From Escherichia coli (lineage in GTDB: Bacteria > Pseudomonadota > Gammaproteobacteria > Enterobacterales > Enterobacteriaceae): 64,000 bases of DNA. The notes beneath the pieces were generated by a model that saw only the letters and a program-made list of their open reading frames with translations, was not told the origin of the DNA and searched no databases. This document shows positions 46,723 to 47,549 of this stretch, in pieces; the stretch's first letter is position 1, and each line of letters begins with the position of its first letter. Position numbers and translations under genes: made by a program. The DNA is taken from assembly GCF_041886205.1 (NCBI RefSeq), contig NZ_CP169031.1, one strand, 5' to 3'.

Positions 46723-47301
46723 TCACGTAGCGTACAACCACTTGTCACCGTTCAATACATGCTCAATAGCCTCACCCTTTTTAAGGCTCATGTATTCCAG
46801 GATGGCGGTTATCGCTTGTTCTGCACCATACGCAAGAACGACGTAGTAACCTTCCTCTCTAAGCCTGCGCATCCAGGCGATCTGCTCTTTCGTCGGGGCT
46901 TTACCATTTGGTTCTTTAAGCTCAATTCGCATGCCGTGATAAATACCGCATGCTTTATCGAGACTCATGTCCGGATAACCTTTTTTCTGCCCTTCAGCCT
47001 TCATTTTCCCGGCGGTTGCTTTTGAACGTTTCCCTCCGTTAGGCGTTGCATGCAACAGCTCATAGATGTCAGGGTGCTTGCGTTCGAAGTAATCAAAAAT
47101 GAAAACCTGCTCGAAGTGCTCGCAATTTCCGTCGCGCAGGTCTGGGTTCTTTGCCAGTGCTGCAAGTGCCTTCGCATGTGGAGAAACTTCTTTTACCGGC
47201 GCAAGCGATAAGAATGGATCCTTTTTGGTTTTTGGCCTGGACCGCCCCTTATTTCGACGCTCACTAAAAGCCTGAAACTCTTCCTCAGTAAAGCGCAACA
47301 T
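46723..47301 (-). CDS. VRR-NUC domain nuclease
   Basis: PD-(D/E)xK-type core GYPDMSLDKACGIYHGMRIELKEPNGKAPTKEQIAWMRRLREEGYYV. Confidence 0.65.
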   Translation of the reverse strand: MLRFTEEEFQAFSERRNKGRSRPKTKKDPFLSLAPVKEVSPHAKALAALAKNPDLRDGNCEHFEQVFIFDYFERKHPDIYELLHATPNGGKRSKATAGKMKAEGQKKGYPDMSLDKACGIYHGMRIELKEPNGKAPTKEQIAWMRRLREEGYYVVLAYGAEQAITAILEYMSLKKGEAIEHVLNGDKWLYAT

Positions 47302-47303
47302 AA

Positions 47304-47549
47304 TCAGTCAAATCCTGCCGGTCGCATGCCATATTTACGCTGTTTTGCAGCCTGCTCTTCCCTGTGCCATTGCGCACATTCAGCGTCACAATAAATGCCT
47401 GATTCAATCGATTCATTGCAGTAACGACACTTCCCTGTAAATACCTGGCTCACGACCTGTGCCTGCTTTCTGATGTTATCGATGGCCATGTCTTTGAGAG
47501 CTTCTAACTGATTCATGCTCAGCTCTGCATCATCAACACGTTCTGCCAA
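47304..47549 (-). CDS. TraR/DksA-type C4 zinc-finger protein
   Basis: 81 aa; CRYC-x10-CDAEC arrangement after an N-terminal helix. Confidence 0.6.
   Translation of the reverse strand: MAERVDDAELSMNQLEALKDMAIDNIRKQAQVVSQVFTGKCRYCNESIESGIYCDAECAQWHREEQAAKQRKYGMRPAGFD

Follow-up and report, generated by a model that had tools for sequence, protein, structure and literature searches.

The genes pmgL and pmgM of P1-type phages probably supply two independent accessory functions from a single operon that is C1-repressed and late, with PmgM a resolvase-type nuclease and PmgL a TraR-like protein. We analyzed them in a 64,000-nucleotide stretch of an Escherichia coli contig (NZ_CP169031.1; hereafter the window). 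A 2.9-kb query around the two genes shares 99.1% identity with phage RCS47 and 98.7% with phage P1, and the window is that of a P1-type phage. The P1 record AF234172 names the genes pmgL (formerly orf83a) and pmgM (formerly orf83b) and labels both "putative morphogenetic function", while the RefSeq label for PmgM is already "VRR-NUC domain-containing protein". Given this identity, the finding concerns two known, uncharacterised genes of a model phage. It is largely ordinary; the residual interest lies in the non-canonical zinc module and altered tip of PmgL, taken together with a report on dksA mutants that is discussed below. New labels for the products, nuclease of resolvase type for PmgM and TraR-like protein for PmgL, correct the annotation and remove the apparent mystery of the gene pair.

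A preliminary description of this DNA had read here a PD-(D/E)xK nuclease and an 81-aa protein with a CRYC...CDAEC cysteine pattern. Both open reading frames are present on the minus strand, with the cysteines and a PD...ELK nuclease motif, and the genes and their ribosome-binding signals are as follows:

47304-47549, minus strand: pmgL coding sequence, 81 aa, TTG start (open reading frame list; PmgL in P1 AF234172).
46723-47301, minus strand: pmgM coding sequence, 192 aa, ATG start (open reading frame list; annotated as PmgM / VRR-NUC domain protein).
47557-47561, minus strand: Shine-Dalgarno sequence GAGGA, 7 nt 5' of the pmgL TTG (read from the sequence).
47313-47316, minus strand: weak Shine-Dalgarno-like AGGA within the 3' end of pmgL, 11 nt 5' of the pmgM ATG (read from the sequence).

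Only 2 nt separate the pmgL stop codon (TGA, 47304-47306) from the downstream pmgM ATG (47299-47301), a spacing that suggests translational coupling of the two genes. The P1 annotation gives an alternative ATG start for pmgL at codon 12. We consider TTG the better start, since the first 11 codons are identical in 80 of 80 P1-type contigs and carry a motif conserved across the family. The GAGGA sequence 7 nt upstream also supports the TTG.

The operon is flanked by phage control elements, most of them mapped from the P1 annotation:

47607-47623, plus strand: C1 operator O26 (formerly Op82), overlapping the -35 element of the predicted promoter P1pmgL (consensus search and P1 annotation).
47586-47656, minus strand: predicted promoters directed toward pmgL, of sigma-70 type (P1pmgL, P2pmgL) and late (LPpmgL) (mapped from P1 annotation).
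47648-47666, plus strand: divergent late promoter LP26 for gene 26, with a -22 region in common with LPpmgL (mapped from P1 annotation).
46700-46716, plus strand: C1 operator Oppp (formerly Op83), directly 3' of pmgM, controlling the next promoter, PpmgN (P1 annotation; sequence identical).

The operator match at 47607-47623, ATTGCACTAATAATTTT, has two mismatches to the consensus and is identical to the O26/Op82 operator that P1 annotation places between the divergent promoters of pmgL and gene 26. Across the window we counted 14 C1 operator matches against 0.33 expected by chance. The C1-controlled divergent promoter context proposed for this locus was thus borne out, and it is already part of the P1 annotation. 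A generic sigma-70 consensus scan found no promoter upstream of pmgL on the minus strand, so the promoters of this region remain predictions from the P1 annotation. Likewise, a terminator scan of the minus strand gave no terminator-like site between pmgL and pmgM or between pmgM and pmgN. Another gene of the P1 operon is ppp, whose annotation gives 64% identity to the lambda serine/threonine phosphatase.

PmgM is clearly a VRR-NUC nuclease, both by sequence and by predicted fold, and the earlier assignment to the PD-(D/E)xK nucleases was correct. The protein matches the solved VRR-NUC protein in PDB 4QBL with an E-value of 8e-17 and about 30% identity over the core. Its score against Pfam VRR_NUC (PF08774) is 21.2 bits, just below the gathering score of 23.8, and a precomputed PF08774 match is present in many PmgM homologues. 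Among PHROGs, PmgM matches phrog_2363 (4e-131) and the "Holliday junction resolvase" cluster phrog_5702 (6e-27). The AF2 model has a pLDDT of 81.7 overall and above 90 over most of the core; a Foldseek search with it returned 4QBL first (E 3.4e-9, TMt 0.78), followed by 4QBN and 4QBO and then by FAN1. From the alignment and the model we delimited the catalytic region:

46762-47133, minus strand: VRR-NUC catalytic core, PmgM residues ~57-180, with E61, P110-D111, E127-x-K129 and Q140.

An alignment of 18 homologues, the most distant at 36% identity, shows no variation at E61, P110-D111, E127-L-K129 and Q140. These residues correspond to the E-PD-ExK-plus-Gln active site described for psNUC, the protein of 4QBL (PMC4103454), a stand-alone VRR-NUC protein from Psychrobacter that shares this site and the core fold with PmgM. 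PmgM differs from psNUC by an additional N-terminal segment of ~55 residues of low or moderate model confidence, in which a basic stretch of low confidence leads into two short helices; homologues from D6-type plasmids lack roughly 35 residues at the beginning of this segment. The dimeric state and resolvase activity are known for psNUC, which binds four-way junctions with subnanomolar affinity and cleaves them symmetrically (PMC4103454). By analogy with psNUC, stNUC and saNUC, we infer that PmgM may likewise form a homodimer that cuts four-way junctions symmetrically.

PmgL belongs to a small family. A phmmer search of 1.84 billion representative proteins returned only 29 matches, mostly of 67-91 aa, and a word-index homologue search yielded almost exclusively P1 variants and frameshifted products. 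We aligned 22 family members. The alignment has an invariant aspartate near the N-terminus, a consensus MxDxxDxA at the N-terminus and the cysteine pattern TGxCxYC-x9-(Y/F)CDxxC, in which C41, C44, C54 and C58 are invariant. The AF2 model (pLDDT 78.8) places a helix at residues 7-31, then a zinc knuckle, then a second helix at residues 56-73. Two segments of the gene are therefore distinguished below:

47436-47540, minus strand: N-terminal helix with acidic tip D6-D-A-E9-L-S11, PmgL residues 4-38 (AF2 and profile comparison).
47376-47429, minus strand: short zinc knuckle CxxC-x9-CxxxC, PmgL residues 41-58 (invariant cysteines in the alignment).

The locus had been described as encoding a TraR/DksA-type zinc finger. 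The part of this claim that stands is the N-terminal helix. The PmgL family profile, searched against PDB sequences with hmmsearch, had TraR as its top match (5W1S, 6N57; E 0.004), with an alignment covering the N-terminal helix and the first CxxC. We then compared the family with an alignment of 13 TraR homologues from F-like plasmids and seven phages. The full-length hhalign comparison gave 97.2% probability (E 3.8e-11, score 56.6), against scores of 9.9 +/- 2.5 (maximum 19.2) for column shuffles and 11.3 for the reversed alignment. The N-terminal halves alone retained 96.6% (score 41, with shuffles at 7.4 +/- 1.8 and a maximum of 14.9); the zinc module and C-terminal halves alone gave a non-significant 24.6% (score 18.1). 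The homology to bona fide TraR is therefore detectable, with its signal coming from the N-terminal helix. It emerges from profile methods only: no link between the two proteins came from searching PDB sequences with PmgL or, by tblastn with TraR as query, the phage collection.

The part that does not stand is the zinc module. Its spacer is 9-13 residues long in the PmgL family and the second cysteine pair is always Cx3C, as opposed to 17 residues and Cx2C in TraR homologues. Neither PmgL nor any of the 22 family members matches Pfam PF01258 at E <= 1, and the NCBIfam TraR/DksA models do not match P1 PmgL. The hhalign alignment puts a 7-residue deletion in PmgL at the conserved IPEARR...PG loop of TraR, a loop that is absent because the zinc spacer is x9 instead of x17. 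The PHROGs cluster phrog_54, "DksA-like zinc-finger protein", does match PmgL (E 1.6e-12), although PmgL may itself be among the members of this cluster. TraR homologues have been defined in print by three elements: a helix with DxxDxA, a globular domain with CxxC-17-CxxC and a helix at the C-terminus (PMC9239242). PmgL has the two helices in outline and its AF2 model follows the TraR/DksA architecture of helix, zinc domain and C-terminal helix, yet it lacks the CxxC-x17-CxxC motif and any match to a curated family model. In the TraR literature consulted, CxxC-17-CxxC is the only motif described for homologues, and none without a C4 finger is reported.

Set beside F-plasmid TraR and the homologues encoded by phages (lambda Orf73, P2 Orf82 and VP882 Orf61), PmgL has a similar length (~70-80 aa for these proteins) and the same succession of N-terminal helix, four-cysteine zinc site and C-terminal helix. 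An acidic tip lies at the extreme N-terminus in both groups, of DxxDxA type in TraR and in the PmgL family consensus, with 28-32 residues between its second acidic residue and the first cysteine. Both groups are non-essential accessory genes in variable surroundings, and the TraR homologues of other phages sit in unrelated genomic contexts. PmgL departs from these proteins in its CxxC-x9-CxxxC module, in the missing PF01258 match and, in P1, in the tip itself. DxxDxA is the family consensus and is exact in 12 of the 22 members; the P1 tip reads DxxExS and agrees with it at the first position only, so that the P1 protein has E and S in place of the residues equivalent to D74 and A76 of DksA. 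In E. coli DksA, D74E is a loss-of-function substitution and A76, where A76T is inactivating, is functionally critical, while in R. sphaeroides DksA A82T is inactivating and D80E is tolerated (PMC4010833). Judged by its sequence, PmgL would be a divergent, only partly TraR-like relative that combines a TraR-type helix with a shorter zinc knuckle, either non-canonical or highly diverged. Structure comparison neither supports nor contradicts this likeness, since Foldseek returned nothing significant for the PmgL model: against PDB, MYND, DksA2, DksA and YacG all had E > 1 (DksA only at E > 4), TraR was not retrieved, and across PDB and BFVD the DksA-type and TraR-type entries appeared only at E > 0.5. 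Among the BFVD matches, small phage proteins of uncharacterised function predominated, alongside a DUF2116 Zn-ribbon protein.

We next consider why the two genes lie side by side, which the preliminary description had left as an unexplained pairing of a nuclease with a TraR-like protein. An intact 81-codon pmgL precedes pmgM in 80 of 80 P1-type IMG/VR viral contigs, which were found with a PmgM alignment and are near-identical P1 loci of little diversity. The pair is also kept in four diverged P1-like lineages: the P0139 type and the P0141 type (53% and 46% PmgL identity, both pairs downstream of darB-like genes), a Pantoea plasmid in which the two homologues overlap (35% identity to P1), and the metagenomic contig L094. 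Most of the short metagenomic contigs with distant PmgL homologues end before the neighbouring gene. In one of them, L093, the PmgL homologue is followed by a 64-aa fragment only, which is uninformative.

Each gene also occurs alone. An HMM search of every open reading frame of at least 25 codons revealed no PmgL beside the PmgM homologues of eight other lineages, namely D6-type plasmids, a Citrobacter P1-like plasmid, Moritella and Aeromonas plasmids, two lineages from Enterobacter, and one element each from Serratia (a phage-plasmid) and Yersinia ruckeri. Four of these eight, all P1-like, retain the upstream darB-olxA synteny, and pmgL is therefore a variable insert in a conserved slot. In the Moritella and Aeromonas plasmids, an unrelated gene of ~500 codons abuts the PmgM-homologue gene instead. 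Conversely, no VRR-NUC gene lies within ~3 kb of the PmgL-family gene in Achromobacter AchV4, Erwinia 49 or Aeromonas phiA008; the PmgL-like gene of phiA008 is unannotated. PmgM-like genes are present in 585 records of the phage collection, PmgL-like genes in only 25. P1-like phage-plasmids are widespread in Enterobacteriaceae, and the two genes occur in roughly 500-770 PLSDB plasmids (497 records with a PmgL-like and 766 with a PmgM-like gene). The supposed puzzle is thus largely explained away: the pairing does not extend across the whole P1-like lineage, and it has the look of ordinary gene order in an operon, not of a new two-part system. We also considered a two-gene nuclease system (toxin-immunity, toxin-antitoxin or anti-phage defence) and rejected it: PADLOC returned no match and has no model for either protein, and co-occurrence of the two genes is not obligate. 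A PmgL-PmgM fusion of Rosetta-stone type was rejected as well; the 266-aa variants that occur are PmgM-PmgN fusions, and no PmgL-PmgM fusion was seen.

A functional module in which PmgL is a partner of the PmgM nuclease would account for the 2-nt gap without a terminator, for the adjacency in all 80 P1 contigs and for its retention in diverged P1-like lineages (L082-87, L094 and L101). PmgL might then act as an inhibitor or immunity-like protein, as a zinc-ribbon DNA-targeting subunit, or as a factor that clears RNA polymerase before PmgM resolves reversed forks in replication-transcription conflicts. In E. coli, modulation of RNA polymerase by DksA and ppGpp is genetically linked to Holliday-junction processing, which we counted in favour of a module. 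We nevertheless judge such a partnership decidedly unlikely. Eight PmgM lineages are devoid of a detectable PmgL, four of them despite conserved synteny; three unrelated phages have PmgL-like genes apart from any VRR-NUC gene; in Moritella and Aeromonas the gene tightly coupled to the PmgM homologue encodes an unrelated protein of ~500 aa; and neither a PADLOC match nor a fusion links the two. Somewhat less improbable, though still unlikely, is the proposal that PmgL is a small treble-clef zinc protein of the FCS, YacG or DUF2116 kind and not an RNA polymerase ligand, with DNA gyrase or another host protein as its target and a resemblance to the TraR helix that is convergent or compositional. 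These families share with PmgL a small zinc module of the pattern CxxC...(F/Y)C-x3-C, and the CxxC-x9-(Y/F)CDxxC knuckle weakly matches DUF2116 (7 of 22 members), VATC, zf-FLZ and L24e. YacG superimposes on the PmgL model with an rmsd of 1.8 A over 37 columns, a DUF2116 Zn-ribbon protein is among the best BFVD matches, and the TraR IPEARR...PG loop is missing from PmgL. Yet none of the matches to DUF2116, VATC, zf-FLZ, L24e or YacG is significant (E 5.4 for the YacG superposition), and these families are without the TraR-like N-terminal helix. That helix scores far above shuffled controls in PmgL, with the family DxxDxA at the very N-terminus and the same spacing to the first cysteine as in TraR. 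A YacG-like gyrase inhibitor in particular was set aside: the motif is similar, but the match is non-significant and only the P1 lineage has the Trp that follows the last Cys.

That both proteins are morphogenetic and serve in virion assembly, as originally annotated, is hardly credible. The annotation suits the surroundings, as the neighbours in P1 are the baseplate and tail genes 26, 25, 7, 24, 6 and 5, with a predicted late promoter upstream. The domain content, on the other hand, is enzymatic and regulatory, not structural, and the phenotypes point the same way. CRISPRi knock-down gave P1 plating efficiencies of 1.3 for pmgL and 0.38 for pmgM, with both genes scored as non-essential; the table of the same PLoS Biology paper also covers the single-gene deletion library of Gonzales et al. 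2022, where both are again non-essential and the single deletions have no plating defect (PMC10695390). On these data pmgL and pmgM are dispensable for plaque formation. Essentiality in the deletion study was limited to pmgA, B, C, G and R, and the new virion proteins it reported to PmgC and PmgG (PMC9024508); neither pmgL nor pmgM is named in the main text of that study. The "morphogenetic" label is unsupported in light of these non-essential phenotypes and the restriction of new virion proteins to PmgC and PmgG.

We therefore return to two independent accessory functions in one operon, for which we infer RNA polymerase binding by PmgL, junction cleavage by PmgM and the biological roles that follow; what the analysis itself shows is which genes these are, their homologies, the conserved motifs and the phyletic pattern of the pairing. 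In the lysogen, C1 would repress the pmgL-pmgM operon, which a late promoter would also serve. PmgM would act as a dimeric, structure-specific endonuclease of the Holliday-junction-resolvase type and most likely trims branched replication and recombination intermediates, yielding concatemeric DNA that is packaged by the headful mechanism. Its dispensability is probably due to host activities of RuvC or RusA type. Lambdoid junction-resolving nucleases are likewise non-essential and encoded in accessory operons. Lambda Rap/NinG, RusA, T7 endonuclease I and T4 endonuclease VII, which debranch DNA before packaging, would be functional analogues of PmgM from unrelated folds and families; the basis of this analogy is general background on phage nucleases together with the discussion in PMC4103454. 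The N-terminal helix of PmgL most likely enters RNA polymerase's secondary channel and modulates host transcription after derepression. Phage TraR homologues are known to bind RNA polymerase and reprogram transcription (PMC9239242), and the effect of PmgL may differ from that of TraR owing to the DxxExS tip of the P1 protein and its truncated globular domain. The adjacency and 2-nt spacing of the two genes would then be a legacy of tight gene packing in the operon, passed down within part of the P1 lineage, and would not indicate a two-component machine. Counting against independence, the pair survived divergence to ~35% identity between P1 and the Pantoea plasmid, which could reflect some selection for linkage. 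Against the TraR-like part of this account stand the missing matches to curated TraR/DksA models, the non-significant score of the zinc and C-terminal half, the lack of a significant Foldseek match and the E and S of the P1 tip.

If PmgL does bind RNA polymerase, the globular C4 domain of TraR would be swappable for a much smaller zinc knuckle, and P1 would gain a factor that might account for the interplay with host DksA already known for this phage. Better development of P1vir in dksA mutants is reported in a paper that names neither pmgL, pmgM nor TraR (PMC8201110). From the residues at its tip, P1 PmgL may antagonise DksA by occupying the channel instead of mimicking it, and such an antagonist would fit the better growth of P1vir in dksA mutants. 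Co-transcription of pmgL with a junction resolvase may in turn serve the clearing of replication-transcription conflicts during P1 replication. The combined proposal, that PmgL-type proteins form an undescribed branch of secondary-channel ligands with the TraR "ruler" helix, an acidic tip and a minimal treble-clef knuckle in place of the globular C4 domain, that the P1 form is a DksA antagonist and that its co-transcription with pmgM helps to clear such conflicts, is a long shot.

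The VRR-NUC nuclease PmgM belongs to a subfamily whose genes do not always lie beside a gene for a PmgL-like zinc protein. Homologues of pmgM on a Moritella plasmid (L099) and an Aeromonas plasmid (L100) are instead preceded by a gene for a hypothetical protein of about 500 residues, which takes the place of the PmgL-like gene and is tightly coupled to the nuclease gene, with 3-4 nt between them. This protein is a candidate for a different partner of the PmgM nuclease subfamily.

Neighbours of PmgM homologues and a PmgL-family gene in related loci
L099, 948-2501: ~500-aa hypothetical protein, Moritella plasmid
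L100, 857-2368: ~500-aa hypothetical protein, Aeromonas plasmid
L098, 3763-5064: ~430-aa coiled-coil protein, Citrobacter
L110, 3803-5098: ~430-aa coiled-coil protein, Enterobacter
L097, 2994-3189 (record 23598-23793): unannotated PmgL-family gene, Aeromonas phage phiA008 (HMM E 3e-15)

We did not detect pmgL in either of the P1-like plasmid lineages represented by L098 and L110, where the third gene downstream from that for the VRR-NUC nuclease encodes the coiled-coil protein. The Citrobacter protein carries a helix-hairpin-helix domain resembling the RNA polymerase alpha-CTD (Pfam, 28.4 bits against a cut-off of 23.8), and the Enterobacter protein has a weak precomputed match to RNA_pol_A_CTD. 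A domain search of P1 PmgS (window 42437-43699), which is similar in size, returned no alpha-CTD-like match.

In phiA008, the PmgL-family gene fills part of a gap of about 410 bp devoid of annotated genes, flanked on one side by a gene with the label dpo and on the other by a large gene further downstream. Immediately upstream of the PmgL-family gene is a terminator-like hairpin with a T-run after it. Many deposited PmgL variants (public clusters P0008-P0035) are frameshifted or truncated, in contrast to the 80 of 80 IMG/VR P1 contigs in which pmgL is intact; for the broken variants, real pseudogenes and mistakes in sequencing or assembly are equally likely explanations. At residue 47, which corresponds to a conserved proline of TraR, S47 and P47 occur as two alleles of roughly equal frequency.

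Genes downstream of pmgM in the window
46501-46722: pmgN, with the spacer that separates it from pmgM and contains C1 operator Op83
45373-46559: pmgP and pmgO

Rare public variants of 266 aa (P0036 and P0037) are in-frame PmgM-PmgN read-through fusions, indicating that pmgN shares the pmgM frame across Op83. CRISPRi scored pmgN as essential (plating efficiency 0.014), whereas by deletion it was scored non-essential (PMC10695390); one possible cause of this mismatch is a guide that blocks the C1-controlled promoter PpmgN, or else polar effects. Further along, pmgO and pmgP overlap by about 100 nt and adjoin the lambda-like phosphatase gene ppp. PmgO, labelled an alpha-2,3-sialyltransferase in RefSeq, and PmgP both weakly match the Pfam family MptE-like/DUF115 below threshold (23.4 and 20.9 bits, respectively), and the two may be paralogues that have diverged, of glycosyltransferase or nucleotidyltransferase type.
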